Positions 2,141 through 56,220 of a DNA stretch of 64,000 bases are shown here, one piece after another. The DNA lies in NCBI RefSeq assembly GCF_045037415.1, contig NZ_CP173440.1; one strand, given 5' to 3'. The stretch comes from Escherichia coli. GTDB taxonomy: Bacteria; Pseudomonadota; Gammaproteobacteria; Enterobacterales; Enterobacteriaceae. The number at the start of each line of letters is the position of its first letter. Position 1 is the first letter of the stretch. Both the position numbers and the translations under genes were made by a program. The notes under the pieces were generated by a model that was given only the letters and a program-made list of their open reading frames with translations, had not been told where the DNA came from and searched no databases.

Positions 2141-2755
2141 TTATCTATAGGATTGCCAGGATTGCTGATGAGAGTTGTTAGCGAGCTTACCTGTTACCTC
2201 GGGAGGATTCTGCTTTACACGATCAAGACCGGTCCATGCATTGAGCTGCATCATTTTGCCGTTACGCTGCAGACGCCGGTTATAACGTTCCATAAATTTG
2301 AAAATATAGTTGGCTCTTACGCGAGGCGTTTTACTGTTGTAGTCAGCAATACCTTCAAACACGTTCCCTTTACGGTCAATAATTTTCCGGTGCAGCCACC
2401 ATGTCCCAACCCAAAAAGAAGCACAGGCGTCATAAGCGAGCTCACGCCAGGTAATTGCGGGGAAGTGGGATTTCACCTCAGCCAGATTTGATGAGTTAAT
2501 CTGCATTGGGCCAATATCCCATGTGCCATTGGTGTTAAGGACGAAAGAGCCAATCTTTCCACCTTCGTTATCAAAAAGAGTAAAGACAAGGTCACGGTCA
2601 ATCCCGAAGAAACGCGCGGCGTCAGTTAAACATTCGTTTTTAACCGTTTCGGGTACATTTTGGGGCTTCGGTCGATCCGGTGGGGGATTGAATGCTGCAT
2701 TTGCATTGACGGTTAAAGTGGCGAACAGCACCGCTCCAAAAAATAATCTAGTCAT
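2141..2755 (-). CDS. secreted lytic transglycosylase-like protein (SLT domain)
   Basis: Signal peptide MTRLFFGAVLFATLTVNANA and GPMQIN motif. Start is probably the ATG at 2753-2755, not the upstream TTG used by the ORF track. Confidence 0.55.
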   Translation of the reverse strand: MTRLFFGAVLFATLTVNANAAFNPPPDRPKPQNVPETVKNECLTDAARFFGIDRDLVFTLFDNEGGKIGSFVLNTNGTWDIGPMQINSSNLAEVKSHFPAITWRELAYDACASFWVGTWWLHRKIIDRKGNVFEGIADYNSKTPRVRANYIFKFMERYNRRLQRNGKMMQLNAWTGLDRVKQNPPEVTGKLANNSHQQSWQSYR

Positions 2756-2888
2756 TAACCAGCTCCTCAAAAGTAACTTTTACAGGTTACACGACAACAA
2801 AAAATTTTTTTTCCTATACCGGGGGGAAATGCCTCCTGGTCGGAAAAATATTTTTTTTTGTTTGATACAGTATTTAAGGAGGTAGGAC

Positions 2889-3617
2889 ATGATTAAACCC
2901 ATTGCAGTTGCTCTGATATTGTTAACTCCATCGGCCTATGCTGATGTTGATTTACCTGCAGAATTAAAGGACAAAATTGAAGCCGTTGGTATCAACCCCG
3001 TCTCTGCAGAGAAATCTCCGGTAAGTGGTATTTACTCAGTCTTTTCAAAAGAAGGGACGAGTTACGTCACGTCTGACGGTGAATACATCTTCACCGGAAA
3101 TTTATTCAAAGTGAAAGGGACAGAAGTGGAAAACACCACGGACGAGTTTATCAGTAAAGGGATGCGATCCTATATTGAGAAGCTCGATACTATCACCTAC
3201 AAAGCACCAGATGAGAAATATGTCATCGGTGTTTTTACTGATATCACCTGTGGCTTTTGCCAGAAACTACATAGCGACCTGCAATCCTATCTGGATAAAG
3301 GCATCACTATTAAATTCATCGCATACCCACGTGCCGGGATGAACTCCATGATAGCCCGAAACATGGCATCTGTCTGGTGTGCAGATGACAAACCTGCAGC
3401 TTTAACCAGAGCAATGAAAGGGGATGGTTTGCCTGAAAAGCAACCGACAAAGACCTGCATGGACTCCATTCAGAGCCAATTTAATGCAGGGAACATGTTC
3501 AAACTCTCAGGCACGCCTAGCGGTTTAAGCCTGAAAGGTGAGCCGATGGTATTTGCGGGGTTACGTGACCCTGACCAGATGCTGAACAGCCTGAAAACGG
3601 CCAATCAGAAAAAATAA
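2889..3617 (+). CDS. DsbC-like periplasmic thiol:disulfide isomerase
   Basis: Signal peptide, CGFC thioredoxin-type active site, AAGGAGG ribosome-binding site 7 nt upstream of the ATG. Confidence 0.6.
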   Translation: MIKPIAVALILLTPSAYADVDLPAELKDKIEAVGINPVSAEKSPVSGIYSVFSKEGTSYVTSDGEYIFTGNLFKVKGTEVENTTDEFISKGMRSYIEKLDTITYKAPDEKYVIGVFTDITCGFCQKLHSDLQSYLDKGITIKFIAYPRAGMNSMIARNMASVWCADDKPAALTRAMKGDGLPEKQPTKTCMDSIQSQFNAGNMFKLSGTPSGLSLKGEPMVFAGLRDPDQMLNSLKTANQKK

Positions 3618-46728: not shown

Positions 46729-46755
46729 AGAAAAAAAAACACCTTATAAAGGTGG
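46729..46755 (-). terminator. rho-independent terminator of the H-NS-like gene
   Basis: Hairpin CACCTT-TATA-AAGGTG followed by T9 on the minus strand. Confidence 0.5.
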
Positions 46756-46779: not shown

Positions 46780-47178
46780 TTAGATCAGGAAATCTTCGAG
46801 AGTTTTTCCTGAATCCAACTGAGCTTTAATTGGTGCCGGGGTACGACCCTGACCTGTCCAAGTTTTTTGCTCACCAGCTTCGTCTATATAAGCATATTTC
46901 GCCGGACGAGGTTCACGCTTTTTTCGTACTTTAATGTTAACGGCCGCGTCCATCAGTTCATTCGGATCTATACCATCAGCGATTATCATTTCCCGGTACT
47001 GAGAGAGTTTTTCTAAACGCTCTCGATTAGCTGCTTCGGCCGCCTTTTCTTCTTCACTGCGTTCAGTGACTACAACAGTGAACTTTTCTAATACTTCTTC
47101 GAGCACTTCTAATGGCAGCTCTCGTGCCTGAGCGCGAAGTGTACGGATGTTATTGAGAACCTGTAATGTCTCGCTCAT
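46780..47178 (-). CDS. H-NS-family nucleoid-associated protein
   Basis: [20 protein letters not shown]…[16 protein letters not shown]…TWTGQGRTP matches H-NS/StpA along its length. Confidence 0.85.
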
Positions 47179-48177: not shown

Positions 48178-48186
48178 GGGGGGGGG
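48178..48186. repeat. G9 homopolymer immediately 5' of an ATG
   Basis: GGGGGGGGG directly precedes the ATG at 48187. Confidence 0.9.
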
Positions 48187-49732: not shown

Positions 49733-50521
49733 AACCTGGGCGGAAACCACTCGAAAAGTAACTTTTGGACAGATTTAGAAGCCGGTTACCCCCACTATTG
49801 TTATTAACATAATATTAACACAAGGAATAATCGTTATTATTCGAACTGTAACTAGGATGTTGCATACCTCTTGAAGCGATGAAAATATGAGCATATTTCT
49901 CATTATTCCTGAATCCATACATTTTTATTGTTTTTATAGCGACATATTGAAACTCTGTTTTATTTAATAAGTATCAATTTTATAATCAATTTCTGTTATT
50001 TTATCGCTATTGACATTTACTATTGTGACTATATCCAATGATATTAGATCACTTACATCTGAAAGTGACAGTGTCACGGATTGTGCACCCAGAGAGACCC
50101 TTTTCGTGAAAAAAGTAGTTCACTCCCATAACGAAACGTGGGCTTCTTTTTTGCAGATCGTATGTGGATGTCTTCAGGTAGCAGGAAGGAAAGTGATGCA
50201 GGCATGAAAGGATGACAAACCGGCAAAGGGGCTGCTACTGCTCCATATTCAACAAACCACCCCTGGTTAGTTGAATCCTTTGCCGGTTTTCCTGACAATA
50301 CCAGACAGGTAAACTTTTTCCATCAGATTTTCTCGTCAACATGTTGCATTCATAGTTTTTCCATAATTGGATGCTTTTGCAGGACAACTACGGTTTTTAT
50401 CCTTTCGTGCCCGGTAAAAAAAATAGTTAAATAGCGATTTCACCCTTTTAAAGGAAAAATTGTCCTCAGGCTCACAGTACTATAAAAGTATCAATAATCA
50501 GGAGCCGGTAATGACTCCAAC

Positions 50522-51025
50522 TTATTGATAGTGTTTTATGTTCAGATAATGCCCGATGACTTTGTCATGCAGCTCCACCGATTTTGAGAACGACAGCGAC
50601 TTCCGTCCCAGCCGTGCCAGGTGCTGCCTCAGATTCAGGTTAAGCCGCTCAATTCGCTGCGTATATCGCTTGCTGATTACGTGCAGCTTTCCCTTCAGGC
50701 GGGATTCATACAGCGGCCAGCCATCCGTCATCCATATCACCACGTCAAAGGGTGACAGCAGGCTCATAAGACGCCCCAGCGTCGCCATAGTGCGTTCACC
50801 GAATACGTGCGCAACAACCGTCTTCCGGAGCCTGTCATACGCGTAAAACAGCCAGCGCTGGCGCGATTTAGCCCCGACATAGCCCCACTGTTCGTCCATT
50901 TCCGCGCAGACGATGACGTCACTGCCCGGCTGTATGCGCGAGGTTACCGACTGCGGCCTGAGTTTTTTAAGTGACGTAAAATCGTGTTGAGGCCAACGCC
51001 CATAATGCGGGCGGTTGCCCGACAT
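50522..51025 (-). CDS. insB: IS1 InsB
   Basis: 167-aa product matches IS1 InsB. Confidence 0.9.
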
Positions 51026-51219
51026 CCAACGCCATTCATGGCCATATCAATGATTTTCTGGTGCGTACCGGGCTGAGAAGCGGTGTAAGTGAACTGCAGT
51101 TGCCATGTTTTACGGCAGTGAGAGCAGAGATAGCGCTGATGTCCGGCAGTGCTTTTGCCGTTACGCACCACCCCGTCAGTAGCTGAACAGGAGGGACAGC
51201 TGATAGAAACAGAAGCCAC
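50944..51219 (-). CDS. insA: IS1 InsA
   Basis: 91-aa product matches IS1 InsA (…[32 protein letters not shown]…). Confidence 0.9.
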
Positions 51220-51252
51220 TGGAGCACCTCAAAAACACCATCATACACTAAA

Positions 51253-51843
51253 TCAGTAAGTTGGCAGCATCACCAACCTTATGTACCTTTTGCAGCCAAA
51301 TTTTCTTGTTATTTTGCTTTGGTAGCATGATAGCATTTTTTCTTCAATTTTTAGTTGACTTTTTATTTCATTAATGCCCCCATTTTTCAGTAGGCATTGC
51401 AGCACTGCTTGTTCCTTTTTTGTTAGCCGTGGATAATGGTTTACAATTCGGCTAACATTTTTCTTTAAGAATGCAAAATATAGTTTTTCAATATTATTTT
51501 TTACATTTCCTTGCATGTTAACATAGATGTCATAATCACACCCTTTAGGATAAAACCGCCCCCCCCCCGAAACGTCAAGCCACATCCATTGGCTTATCAT
51601 ATTTAATGATCCCCTTAACATTTTGTACCCTCCCCATTTCCCTGAATAAAAAATCCTGCTGTCAACCAATACTCTTATGTTTCTTTTGTGCTTAATTGCT
51701 ATTGATTTATTAACTACTCCTTCATATGTAATATGAAACAGAGGTAGTCCAGTTAACTGCTTTAGGCCATAATAAAAAAAATAATCATCAGTCAACACTA
51801 TGTTTACATCCTTGTTACATATAAAGTAAATATATTTTTCCAT
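51253..51843 (-). CDS. LuxR-type HTH regulator, 3' end fused to the IS1 terminus, with internal G10 tract
   Basis: C-terminal LuxR-like HTH (LTKKEQAVLQCLLKNG…KITRKFG). The last ~7 codons come from IS1. The C10 run at 51559-51568 encodes GGG within the ORF. Confidence 0.45.
   Translation of the reverse strand: MEKYIYFICNKDVNIVLTDDYFFYYGLKQLTGLPLFHITYEGVVNKSIAIKHKRNIRVLVDSRIFYSGKWGGYKMLRGSLNMISQWMWLDVSGGGRFYPKGCDYDIYVNMQGNVKNNIEKLYFAFLKKNVSRIVNHYPRLTKKEQAVLQCLLKNGGINEIKSQLKIEEKMLSCYQSKITRKFGCKRYIRLVMLPTY
51559..51568. repeat. C10 homopolymer (G10 on the coding strand) inside the LuxR-type ORF
   Basis: Ten consecutive C at 51559-51568. Confidence 0.9.
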
Positions 51844-52376
51844 AGAAACAGTAACTTTGATCCATCAATATTCATCCAAAAATATTTTATAAGCATTAAA
51901 AAAAAAAACAACAGAGAATCATTTCTCTTGAAAGTCGTTGGTTACAATTTTTAATGAATAAAAATTCAATCAATCACGGTAAATAGTCATTTTTTTTGTC
52001 TTTGCGTGTTTGCAATTAATTGATCTTTTTTTTTAACCCGCCCCCCTTTATTTTGTCAGTTTGCTTAATAATTCACGATTAAAGATGTGTGGGGAGGGGC
52101 GAGTTTAGGACTTATTTTAAAATCCTTATCAAATAAATACTTTCGCAAAAAACAATTCGCTTAGTAATACTGTCTGTTTCTATAATAACCATGGTAATTA
52201 GATTTCTGAAAAATATGTTCAGATTACCACTAGTGTAACAGTTGGTGCTTGGGAGTTATTTGGCGATTGATCCGACCACATGATCCAGGCTAAATACCCT
52301 CAAAGTAAATTAATATATTGTTCTCCTTGATATCCGGCCCATTTTTTGATTTAATTTCAAATGATAACTGTATAAG

Positions 52377-53039
52377 GTGCAATCAATGAGTAATACTGAT
52401 AACGGGACGAAGATCTACACTCCATTAACTCTGAAACTATATGACTGGTGGGTGCTTTGCATTTCGAATAGTTACGCATGGAATTGTTCAACAAAGGATA
52501 TTTTAATTCCTTATTTTTTACAAAACTTAAGTCCTAACCACCTAGATATTGGCGTTGGTACTGGTTATTATCTCACTAAAATCCCTGCTCACTATAATAT
52601 ATCCCTCATGGATCTTAACCCTGCCAGCTTGAAAGCTGCATCGGCAAGAGTAGGGGAAGATAGAATACACTATAAAGTTAGGCATGATGTATTTGAATCT
52701 TACCCAGAGGAACTTCATGGAAAATTTGATTCCATATCAATGTATTACCTCATCCATTGTCTACCAGGAACAATGGAAGATAAAAGAATTGTCATAAAAA
52801 ACGCGAAGGCCGCCTTAACTAAAGGTGGAATACTTTACGGAGCAACCATACTTGGTGATAAGGTAAGGCATAATAGTTTTGCGTTAAAACTGTTGCAAAT
52901 TTATAACAAAAAAGGTATTTTTTCTAATTTTAGTGATTCAGAAGAAGAACTAAAAAAAATGCTTTCTCATTATTTTAAAAATATTGATGTCATTGTGAAA
53001 GGTGCTGTCGCAATGTTCTCTGCGCATGGAAAAAAATAG
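52377..53039 (+). CDS. class I SAM-dependent methyltransferase
   Basis: DIGVGTGYY (motif I). Paralog of the ORF at 61472..62179. Confidence 0.55.
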   Translation: MQSMSNTDNGTKIYTPLTLKLYDWWVLCISNSYAWNCSTKDILIPYFLQNLSPNHLDIGVGTGYYLTKIPAHYNISLMDLNPASLKAASARVGEDRIHYKVRHDVFESYPEELHGKFDSISMYYLIHCLPGTMEDKRIVIKNAKAALTKGGILYGATILGDKVRHNSFALKLLQIYNKKGIFSNFSDSEEELKKMLSHYFKNIDVIVKGAVAMFSAHGKK

Positions 53040-53399
53040 CTATTTATCATTTTTTCCTGGATTTATCTTTTTTAAAAACACCTTGTGAACTGATCCCATA
53101 GTTTATATTAAGCGACTAACAGGGCTTGGGTTCGGTCCTCTACCGGACTCAGGCCTTTTTGTTTTATTCTTTCATGGTTGTAATAGTGGATGTACTCATC
53201 TATAGCCATGCGCAACTAGCTGATATTCTTATGTTCCTTCAGGTAAAAACATTCAATCTTTAGCGTACCGAAGAAGCTTTCCATTACTGCATTGTCGTGA
53301 CATTTTCTCTTTCTTGACATGCTCTGTTTCAGGCCGCTGCCCTTAAGTCGCTTCTGATAATACGCCATCTGGTAGTGCATCTAATTAGTAGAACATGTA

Positions 53400-54110
53400 T
53401 TTTTCAATGAAGGCCCCGATGACTTTTTCATGCAGCTCAACAGAGCGTGAGAAACAGACGGTCGGCGAGCCAGGCGTTTGATTCGGGTTCTCAGCGTCAG
53501 ATTGTTTCGCTCAATGCGCTGAGTAGAGATTTTGCCGGTCAGATGCTTATCCTTCGGCACCTCTCTGGCGTAACTTCCCAGTCATCGCTGGTTATTATGC
53601 TGATATTAAACGGTGTGAGCAGAGCCAGCAGCGCACTGCAGGTTGCATCGGTCCGTGGCCCAAAAGTATAGGCCAGCACACCACCTGTTTTCGTGTTGTA
53701 CGCGTACCAGAGCCAGTGCTACCGGGCTTTGCTGCCGACCTCCATTGCTCGTGGAGTTCGCAGATGAGCGCCACATCGGCATGAGCAACCGGAGATGTGG
53801 TTACTCGTCGTGGCGCGAGTTTTTTAAAGTGCGAATAACGGTGTTAATGCCGATTTTGAGTGTCCTTGCGGTATCACAGACGCCGGCTCCGTTGAATGCC
53901 ATTTCGGTAATTTTCTCTTTGACGCCGTGCTTGCGTGCTTCATAAGTATAAGTGAGCAGAAACACGCGGTAGCAATCGCGGCAGCGAAACCGGTCACGGC
54001 CTTTAGGGCTCTGCCTGTGGCGGAAAACTTGGTCAGACTGACAACGGGGGCAATGAACGGTAACGCTGGTCATGAACAAACCTCAAAAGCACGCATCATA
54101 CATCAATTCA
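53400..54110 (-). mobile_element. degraded IS1-family element (divergent isoform) next to an IS3-family fragment
   Basis: InsA-like ORF 53801..54079 (…CPRCQSDQVFRHRQSPKGRDRFRCRDC…); InsB-like region 53430-53800 is frameshifted; IS3-type OrfB piece at 53200-53400. Confidence 0.55.
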
Positions 54111-54221: not shown

Positions 54222-55651
54222 CTATTTAATAATTTCTGACAGGGCCTGACCTGCTTTCTGAATATAAACTGGTTGCGAGACCTCACCCAGCTGATTGGCA
54301 ACCATCCGGGTTTCATAATGACTGGCAGTTAATACCAGAGCTGGCCCGTGAATACAGGACAGTTGTTCAACTACTGCCTTTAACCATTGACCTGAAAATA
54401 TCTGTTCTTTCGGGTCATCGAACACCTTTGGAAAATCAGCACCGGCGATGGTCAGCTTCATTGAGCCATAGACGTCTGGGGAGAATATTTTCCTGATTGA
54501 AATCGTATCGCTGGTTAACCCCAGAGCTTTACATAACCACTCCATTCCGGTCTCTGGGGTACTGGTAATAGAGAGGGTAGCCGACGTCAGTAACGCACTA
54601 CGCCACTGAGTGCAGTATCTGCCCACATTCATCCCGATAAACGGGTTTACAGCGATCAGGGCTGGTTCACGACGTTTATTGGAAACGCCTACGCCCTTTT
54701 GCCCCCGGACAATCCGAGCATATCCCTGCTGTAGATACAGTCAAAGAAAGCTTTCCGGGCCGCTTCATTTTTTATTTTCCGCCCTACCTTTGATAAGGCG
54801 TTAAAGCTATTGTCAAACAAGGCAACCGCTGCAGGCGTACTACAAAAATGCAGATCGCCCGCTATCGAAGTCACGTCGTTCATTAACTGGTCGATGACAT
54901 GCACGCCATTACGTGGAATATGTTCATTGAACGCACTAGTCAACTCTCTGAGGTTGAAGCGCCGCTGTTTCCAGACCTCAAGCATATCTACAAAAATGTC
55001 TGCCTCATCAATAATGAGGTACATATTTTCTTTGTCACCGAGGATGCGGTGATTACACATACAGTCGACCATTACCATCGCATGGGTCGTAACAATAAAG
55101 TTAGCACTGAGAGCATTCAGGCGAATATCATCAATGTCCTGTATATCATCCCAGATGGAGTAGGTGACCATCTCTGGCGTGATCTGCGCTGGCAGTTCAC
55201 CATACTCTTCTTCAAACTCAACCAGAGGTTTTGACCAGTTAGCGAGTTTTTCAAGGACCTTAACCGTATCCAGATCGGTAAATTCGTCCATGAGTAACAG
55301 TCCACGTACTTTCTCCAGGGATACGTAATTTACTTTCCCCATAAGCCGGGAAAAAGTAACTTTTATGCCGCATTGTTCAGCTATCTGTTCAAGGAGAGGA
55401 CGATCGCTTCTGAATATCTGGTGCATCAGTGCATGAGAATTCGTGGCAATCACAAATTTTGCCTCAGGGTTTTTCAGCAGAATCAGAAGCGCCGGTACCA
55501 GATAGCCCAGCGTTTTTCCTACACCTGTTTCAGCACTAATCAGTGCAACTTTATGATCCTGAGTCAGTGCACCAGCTGCAGCCTCGATATAATCCTGTTG
55601 GACCTTACGTAACGACAATCCGGCAGACTCAAATACCGCTGATGTATTCAT
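54222..55651 (-). pseudogene. DinG/Rad3-like SF2 helicase, frameshifted and C-terminally truncated
   Basis: Walker A ETGVGKT and LIIDEAD in ORF 54689..55684; LLTSATLS in ORF 54222..54632 in a different frame. The gene ends against IS-derived DNA. Confidence 0.5.
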
Positions 55652-55653
55652 GA

Positions 55654-56220
55654 CTACTGCCCCGCCAGATGCATGAAACCGCAACCAAATACGCGTTTAG
55701 GGCCTACGCCATAAACGATTCCCACTTCAGCTTCCTGTTGATTGCTGATTATGGCGGTACCCTGTACCGTGAATACGGGTAGCGTAAAACCACGTCCAGC
55801 ATTTCCTTTGTCGATATGGACGAATTTCGGGCCACTGACGACGATTTGACCGGGTTTAAACCCAGCCTTCGCTAATTTGGTGAGGGCCAACTGATAACTA
55901 GCCTCTTCAGATGGAGCAAACTGGCGTCGGCCACGGCCTTCTGACTTTGTTCCTTTATGAAAGATGGCCATTAACGTAATGAACTTGATTTCATGGCCCT
56001 CAGAGAGAATAAGCTCTCTTTTTTTCTCCCCAGGCAACTCCAGAGCTGTAGCTGTGCGGACCAGGAGTAACGAATCATCCCCGGTACCGGGAAAAATTTT
56101 AAAAGAGTACGGCAGCTTCTCTCCCTTACGTTCCTGCATGAAAAAATCCAGGTGCTGGTGGATCTGGTAAACACTTGTGTGACGGATACGCAACCGAAAC
56201 GCATTATCGTAGTAAATCAT
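55654..56220 (-). CDS. hypothetical protein, translationally coupled upstream of the helicase gene
   Basis: 188-aa ORF; stop overlaps the probable helicase start (ATGA). Confidence 0.35.
   Translation of the reverse strand: MIYYDNAFRLRIRHTSVYQIHQHLDFFMQERKGEKLPYSFKIFPGTGDDSLLLVRTATALELPGEKKRELILSEGHEIKFITLMAIFHKGTKSEGRGRRQFAPSEEASYQLALTKLAKAGFKPGQIVVSGPKFVHIDKGNAGRGFTLPVFTVQGTAIISNQQEAEVGIVYGVGPKRVFGCGFMHLAGQ

Follow-up and report, generated by a model that had tools for sequence, protein, structure and literature searches.

The poly-T tract of the rmpADC promoter on a virulence plasmid: length polymorphism and a probable role as -35/-10 spacer

Promoter-spacer repeats are known from Neisseria meningitidis porA (poly-G) and opc (poly-C), from Haemophilus influenzae hifA/hifB (TA) and from Mycoplasma hyorhinis vlp (poly-A). 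In these switches slippage in a simple repeat that separates the -35 from the -10 element alters the length of the spacer and with it, in a graded manner, the strength of the promoter. The locus considered here would be alike in this arrangement, but it is a plasmid regulator of capsule mucoidy and not a surface antigen, and it is known from length polymorphism among plasmids.

The closest described system is the rmpADC promoter itself. Its poly-T polymorphism upstream of rmpA is already known, with alleles P9T to P13T (PMC11237801, PMC13274134, PMC11612158), and the locus, the tract and the allele are the same as ours, P11T being that of pK2044 and pLVPK. When compared with the published P11T plasmids, our tract is no different, whereas rmpA is truncated by IS1 and both rmpD and rmpC are absent here. 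A second slippage-prone homopolymer in the same operon is the coding poly-G tract, whose phase variation was described for rmpA and rmpA2 together with simple repeats in rmpD and rmpC (bioRxiv 10.1101/2025.09.12.675794). The poly-G switch works by frameshift and is ON/OFF, whereas that of the promoter poly-T is transcriptional and graded. The third related system is xenogeneic silencing by H-NS with SlyA, for example at the E. coli K5 capsule promoter, which also concerns AT-rich, horizontally acquired DNA; Prmp depends on KvrA, a homologue of SlyA. The likeness at Prmp consists of base composition and KvrA dependence, and the silencing model leaves the dependence on tract length unexplained. 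What we add is a spacer rule of n + 5 bp for a tract of n T, with the optimum T12 equal to 17 bp, and a comparison with the rmpA2 promoter, neither of which was found in the accessible text of the published poly-T accounts.

Identity and base composition of the promoter region

The window, that is, the whole stretch of 64,000 nucleotides that was analysed, contains a region of 533 bp (51844-52376) that is identical at 533 of 533 nucleotides to pK2044 (NC_006625.1, strain NTUH-K2044). The search matched hundreds of Klebsiella plasmids in which the downstream gene is annotated as rmpA, "mucoid phenotype regulator", and the intergenic region has matches in 462 plasmids. The original prediction had placed the region upstream of a LuxR-type regulator, and this is correct, since ORF 51253-51843 (-) carries the LuxR/GerE helix-turn-helix (Pfam GerE, E = 1.5e-6). 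On the other side, divergent from rmpA, lies a class I SAM-dependent methyltransferase gene (52386-53039, +; Pfam Methyltransf_12/25/23/11; annotated so in pK2044). In pK2044 the ATG of this gene is annotated at 52386, which moves the end of the intergenic region to 52385. The identity with pK2044 and the flanking rmpA and methyltransferase genes show that we are dealing with Prmp, the rmpADC promoter of a K. pneumoniae virulence plasmid of the pK2044/pLVPK type (KpVP-1). Its A11 run corresponds to the published length-variable poly-T "P11T" of this promoter.

The intergenic region 51844-52385 is also a recurrent target of insertion sequences. A part of the matching plasmids (83 of 462) match it only partially, with breaks near 52065, 52201, 52233, 52293 and 52313 (query positions 222, 358, 390, 450 and 470), and many plasmids from China have ISKpn26 at query position 358. 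An increase in promoter activity of about 30% has been reported for ISKpn26 located upstream of rmpA (PMC11363291). Farther along, IS1-like and IS3-like fragments occupy about 53100-54100, and CRISPR-associated genes, annotated alike in pK2044 and p1878-217k, lie beside the rmp locus at 54222-56220 (-). They comprise a DEAD/DEAH (DinG-like) helicase that is seemingly split into ORFs 54222-54632 and 54689-55684 and, after it, a Cas6/Cse3-type protein (55654-56220).

The homopolymer runs reported for the region, A11 at 51898-51908 (T11 on the rmpA strand, -), T9 at 52026-52034 (+), some 185 bp ahead of the rmpA start codon, and C6 at 52041-52046 (+), were read from the sequence at exactly these positions, and a T8 run at 51990-51997 (+) has to be added to them. 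With 6 runs of at least 6 nt in its 533 bp, where an equal length of the window has 1.0 on average, the region ranks in the top 1.5% of sliding windows for run density. Three runs of at least 8 nt did not occur together in any of 2000 composition-preserving shuffles, and the longest run of 11 has P = 0.006. The clustering of runs exceeds chance. The GC content is 30.6% compared with the window mean of 47% and belongs to the lowest 1% of the window; the region is AT-rich relative to its surroundings, as is characteristic of H-NS-silenced promoters.

Length polymorphism of the poly-T tract and of the other tracts

Queries of 85-88 nt, identical except for the tract length, were compared with 72,556 PLSDB plasmids. 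The promoter was found in 451 plasmids, 450 of which aligned over at least 80% of the query. T11 dominates with 272 exact matches (60% of the 451), followed by T10 with 106 (24%) and T12 with 58 (13%), while the other tract lengths account for 15 (3%). This distribution is close to the published NCBI census, in which P9T was counted 15 times, P10T 111, P11T 286, P12T 51 and P13T 2 (Teng et al. 2024, mSystems, PMC11237801). The alleles T9, T10, T11 and T12 were confirmed by direct reading of 18 loci, in otherwise clean sequences.

The tract also differs among close relatives, as is expected of a contingency locus. The window has T11 and NZ_CP072997.1 has T10, despite the rare IS1-rmpA junction that they have in common. 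The phvKpST147_NDM-1 plasmid series includes T11 (MW911668 and MW911669) as well as T12 (MW911671), and in the ISKpn26-bearing lineage NZ_CP087652.1 has T11 while NZ_CP041374.1 has T10. These differences within lineages argue for recurrent slippage and against one inherited change.

It has to be considered whether such counts mainly reflect sequencing or assembly. Four of the 18 loci (L009, L013, L016 and L017) are affected by indels in many of their homopolymers and are probably long-read artefacts, and some of the non-modal tract lengths are therefore erroneous; errors of long reads are also biased to contraction, by which the T10 class would be inflated. That the variation is mainly of this origin is nevertheless highly improbable, since most of the T10, T12 and T9 loci that were read (L002, L010, L011, L012, L014 and L018) are clean at all other homopolymers, and the shorter A/T control runs are essentially invariant, namely T8 at 51990-51997 and T9 at 2851-2859, the latter in 65 plasmids. 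We give as little weight to a neutral hypermutability without phenotype. It would be consistent with the variation seen where the rmp operon is already broken, as in the window and NZ_CP072997.1, but mucoviscosity, rmpA mRNA and mouse lethality all vary among isogenic P9T to P13T constructs (PMC11237801).

The other tracts of the region behave differently. The segment with the T8 run (51990-51997) was exact in 247 of 453 records and had one mismatch in 205, and among the sampled records all but two of the non-exact ones keep the length. Both carriers that were read, L010 and L017 (loci on the ISKpn26 side), have an A>C SNP at 51981, so the difference is a substitution and no indel; judged from these two loci, this SNP probably accounts for the split of about 55/45 of the plasmids over the segment. 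The segment with T9 and C6 was exact in 353 of 453 records, and a further 97, mostly 1 nt shorter, fell in the 95-99% band. Five clean loci from the shorter class all had T8 in place of T9, with C6 unchanged and A at 51981, and four of the five carried the methyltransferase allele WP_023302796.1. About 20% of the plasmids carry this T8 allele of the T9 run (52026-52034), which probably marks a lineage and not a hot spot. In the literature consulted on the rmp promoter, no description of the T9/T8 polymorphism was found. The C6 run reads C7 in the rmp2 lineage (Kp52.145 plasmid II) and is constant elsewhere, apart from shorter values in assemblies with many other homopolymer indels.

The tracts are thus not the equivalent variable elements for which they had been taken, as T8 and C6 are essentially fixed in length and the T8 allele of T9 looks linked to a lineage. 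The length polymorphism analysis suggested with the original prediction gave a divided answer: variation in tract length was found for A11, with T10, T11 and T12 among 451 plasmids, and was missing for most other tracts, so that invariance fails for the former and largely holds for the latter. A second series that had been called similar is indeed present, with A6 at 2799-2804, T8 at 2805-2812, G6 at 2821-2826 and T9 at 2851-2859, in a divergent intergenic region of 118 bp between ORF 2141-2770 (-) and ORF 2889-3617 (+). The suggestion that this series (2799-2859) varies in length was not borne out, since the stretch 2788-2875 is identical in 61 of 65 plasmids, and both of the exceptions that were sampled are substitutions of the same length.

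Promoter architecture and the -35/-10 spacer

On the rmpA strand the elements follow in the order GAGAAATGATTCTC TG TTG T(11) AATGCTTA TAAAAT ATTTTTGG, then 34 nt and the ATG. A relaxed sigma-70 scan gave TTGTTT-16-TAAAAT as one of the two top pairs of this strand; of the two, it alone contains the tract in the spacer. The TTG of the putative -35 hexamer TTGTTT (51906-51911, -) lies directly 5' of the tract, whose first three T complete the hexamer, and the putative -10 hexamer TAAAAT (51884-51889, -) aligns with TATAAT of rmpA2. The poly-T tract (51898-51908, -), which is the tract of the published P9T to P13T alleles (PMC11237801, PMC13274134), would then make up most of the spacer, and with T11 the promoter would have the run of at least 8-9 nt that contingency switches typically carry in their spacer. 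The same two papers place the tract between -35 and -10 relative to a known TSS, and in PMC13274134 the rmpADC mRNA of a P10T strain was 4- to 90-fold lower.

The rmpA2 upstream region of pKpvST15 (L020, 1827-2110) offers a comparison. It was examined in a three-way alignment with a mean column identity of 84% and diverged flanks. The rmpA2 promoter keeps TGTTG and has the consensus TATAAT at the aligned -10, and the non-repetitive 11-mer CTTTAAAAAGA replaces T11, so that the spacer is equal at 16 bp. The hexamer assignment is supported by this, because rmpA2 keeps the hexamers at equal spacing without the repeat. Since its spacer segment is non-repetitive, the rmpA2 paralogue would be without a promoter length switch. 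The comparison shows that only the rmpA copy has the homopolymer.

For sigma-70 promoters the optimal spacer is 17 bp; 16 and 18 bp are tolerated and spacers of 15 bp or less give poor activity. We propose that the poly-T tract is the spacer of a sigma-70 promoter consisting of -35 TTGTTT, n + 5 bp and -10 TAAAAT, with the rmpA ATG about 34 nt further downstream of the -10. The gain or loss of one T by slipped-strand mispairing would change the -35/-10 spacing, which would be 14 bp for T9, 15 bp for T10, 16 bp for T11, 17 bp for T12 and 18 bp for T13. The change in spacing would move rmpADC transcription up or down, and with it hypermucoviscosity and virulence; the perfect ARG box upstream would allow activation by ArgR. 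For isogenic constructs, PMC11237801 gives string lengths of about 19 cm (12T), 12 cm (11T), 5 cm (13T) and 1.5 cm (9T and 10T), with rmpA mRNA and mouse lethality following the same order, and an activity order of 12T > 11T > 13T >> 10T ~ 9T by string test and qRT-PCR. The 17-bp optimum and a spacer of n + 5 bp reproduce this order. That promoter activity depends on the length of the A11 tract, as the original prediction implied, is shown by promoter-swap experiments that were already published (PMC11237801). We consider it very likely that the poly-T length switches rmpADC through the -35/-10 spacing; the exact hexamers and the spacer rule are what we infer. High-frequency reversible switching is a separate matter, for which no measurement was found in the literature searched, and reversibility is termed speculative in PMC13274134.

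Some features of the region are less favourable to these hexamers. The -35 TTGTTT matches the consensus at 3 of 6 positions only, and the pair TTGTTT/TAAAAT was not called in a default sigma-70 and terminator scan of 51700-52500, which returned one promoter-like site at 52210-52182 (-), fewer than in shuffles, and no terminator. In the relaxed scan the same score was obtained for TTGTAA-18-AATGAT, a pair situated upstream of the tract. If this were the true promoter, the tract would be in the 5' leader, and its length could act through helical phasing, by setting how upstream activator sites (the ARG box and putative RcsB, KvrA or RmpA sites) face the -10 or RNA polymerase, and not through the -35/-10 spacing. 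The need of the promoter for the activators ArgR, RcsB, KvrA/B and RmpA, together with the equal score and the weak -35, is consistent with such phasing. Its effect, however, would have a period of about 10.5 bp, so a step of one base from T11 to T10 would not abolish activity; AATGAT is a poor -10, and two papers show the tract within the -35/-10 interval, relative to a known TSS. We therefore regard phasing as very unlikely.

Upstream of the spacer-type promoter that we prefer there is an ARG box, the activator site of ArgR, at 51953-51970 (-), which agrees with the consensus at all 16 specified positions. The KPPR1 ARG-box reference of PMC12219000, where the ArgR site was shown to activate Prmp, includes this sequence, which is also conserved in the rmpA2 promoter. 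A 14-bp palindrome, GAGAAATGATTCTC (51912-51925, -), abuts the putative -35 on its upstream side and is a candidate operator; no Fur, RcsAB or CRP consensus fits it. Over the whole region, consensus scans for Fur, CRP, RcsAB and SlyA gave nothing convincing, the best Fur match (12/19) being no better than shuffles (P = 0.87), and the published Fur regulation of rmpA could for this reason not be placed on the sequence. A search for inverted repeats returned weak AT-rich pairs and the arms CCCGCCCC/GGGGCG, 51 nt apart. An Rfam search of 51200-53100 gave a sub-threshold snoRNA chance match only and no structured RNA.

One plasmid from a CSF isolate, NZ_CP132714.1 (L014), combines T10 with a SNP at the equivalent of 51887 that turns TAAAAT into the consensus TATAAT. 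This SNP in the -10 may be compensatory for the weak T10. A recurrence of T10 with the -10 up-mutation was considered and rejected, as the combination is a singleton among 450 plasmids.

The original prediction attributed a different role to the tracts, namely that they bend DNA and that an H-NS-family protein encoded in the window would silence such regions. A protein of this family is encoded as stated, at 46783-47178 (-), 4.7 kb from the promoter; its tblastn alignment with E. coli H-NS covers 135 aa at 67% identity (E = 2e-50). A run of A9 (46731-46739) lies 44 bp past the stop codon of this hns paralogue. On such an account A/T tracts would bend DNA and nucleate H-NS, possibly this paralogue, and their length would tune silencing and not the hexamer spacing. 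The low GC content of the region and the nearby paralogue are in its favour, as is the 9-fold lower activity of PrmpA without KvrA, which is homologous to SlyA and a classical antagonist of H-NS (PMC6437046), and so is the over-production of capsule by H-NS mutants of NTUH-K2044 (PMC6247091). However, binding or regulation by H-NS at Prmp was not found in the literature searched: Ares 2016 makes no mention of rmpA, and the other H-NS papers searched, including PMC6437046 and PMC6247091, invoke H-NS solely for the cps locus. Nor is there any enrichment of the high-affinity H-NS motif, for which the region has 1 match at 2 mismatches and the window 1.1 per kb. The other tracts have no comparable length variation, and the rmpA2 promoter works with a non-homopolymer spacer of equal length. 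The optimum is non-monotonic: activity peaks sharply at T12 and collapses at T10, which misfits a graded effect of AT content or bending and points to spacer geometry. Bending is not supported as the mechanism of the length effect.

We consider it unlikely that tract length acts by tuning H-NS silencing in place of the spacing; the length dependence is unexplained by such silencing. H-NS silencing may be an additional layer, which would be compatible with control through the -35/-10 spacing. A more specific form of this is that Prmp is under xenogeneic silencing, by chromosomal H-NS or by the paralogue 46783-47178, with KvrA as counter-silencer, and that the tracts, the T9/T8 polymorphism included, tune the silencing besides the spacing; to this we attach a rather low probability. 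If silencing of Prmp by the paralogue were true, the virulence plasmid would carry its own modulator of the hypermucoidy switch.

State of the rmp operon and meaning for virulence calls

In this plasmid rmpA (51253-51843, -) is truncated at its 3' end and consists of the native codons 1-189 and 7 residues encoded by IS1. The native RmpA of pK2044 has 209 aa, of which residues 1-189 are kept here with one substitution, T169M (99.5% identity), and the truncation clips the end of the HTH domain. The IS1 element (50507-51274, -) abuts codon 189 with its end, the inverted repeat being at 51252-51274 and the junction at 51274/51275. The window equals NZ_CP061949.1, a conjugative IncFIB/IncHI1B plasmid with the order IS1-rmpD-rmpA, minus 838 bp (L019:2541-3378) directly adjoining IS1, and both flanks are at least 99.96% identical. 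This deletion of 838 bp next to IS1 took the rmpA 3' end and rmpD. The IS1-rmpA junction is common to only three PLSDB plasmids (NZ_CP072997.1, CP139220.1 and CP032834.1). RmpD, RmpC and rmpA2 were not found by tblastn of the window, and an intact rmpA-rmpD-rmpC operon is not present; the promoter is a member of the published family, while the operon is a remnant.

The poly-G tract of rmpA, described as phase-variable, is in frame as G10 (51559-51568, C10 on the + strand). A segment of 86 nt around it is identical in 361 of the 434 rmpA-class PLSDB records (83%), and the poly-G is less variable than the promoter poly-T, as its modal form makes up 83% of records in PLSDB against 60%. A run of G9 lies at 48178-48186, within an AT-rich stretch. 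It was considered as the poly-G of rmpA2 and rejected, because tblastn with RmpA finds a single locus in the window. Despite T11, which is an active length, and the in-frame G10, the rmp output would be lost, because RmpA is cut at 189 of 209 residues, rmpD is deleted and rmpC is absent. From the sequence, the rmp locus of this plasmid is expected to be non-functional.

Hypermucoviscosity, which is set by rmpADC expression, is one of the main determinants of hypervirulent K. pneumoniae. Since the poly-T length accounts for some rmpA-positive isolates being non-mucoid and attenuated, virulence calls from genotypes should include this tract, along with the poly-G and any IS damage, as has already been published. 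The locus described here would be scored as "rmpA-positive, P11T, poly-G in frame" and is yet expected to be non-functional.
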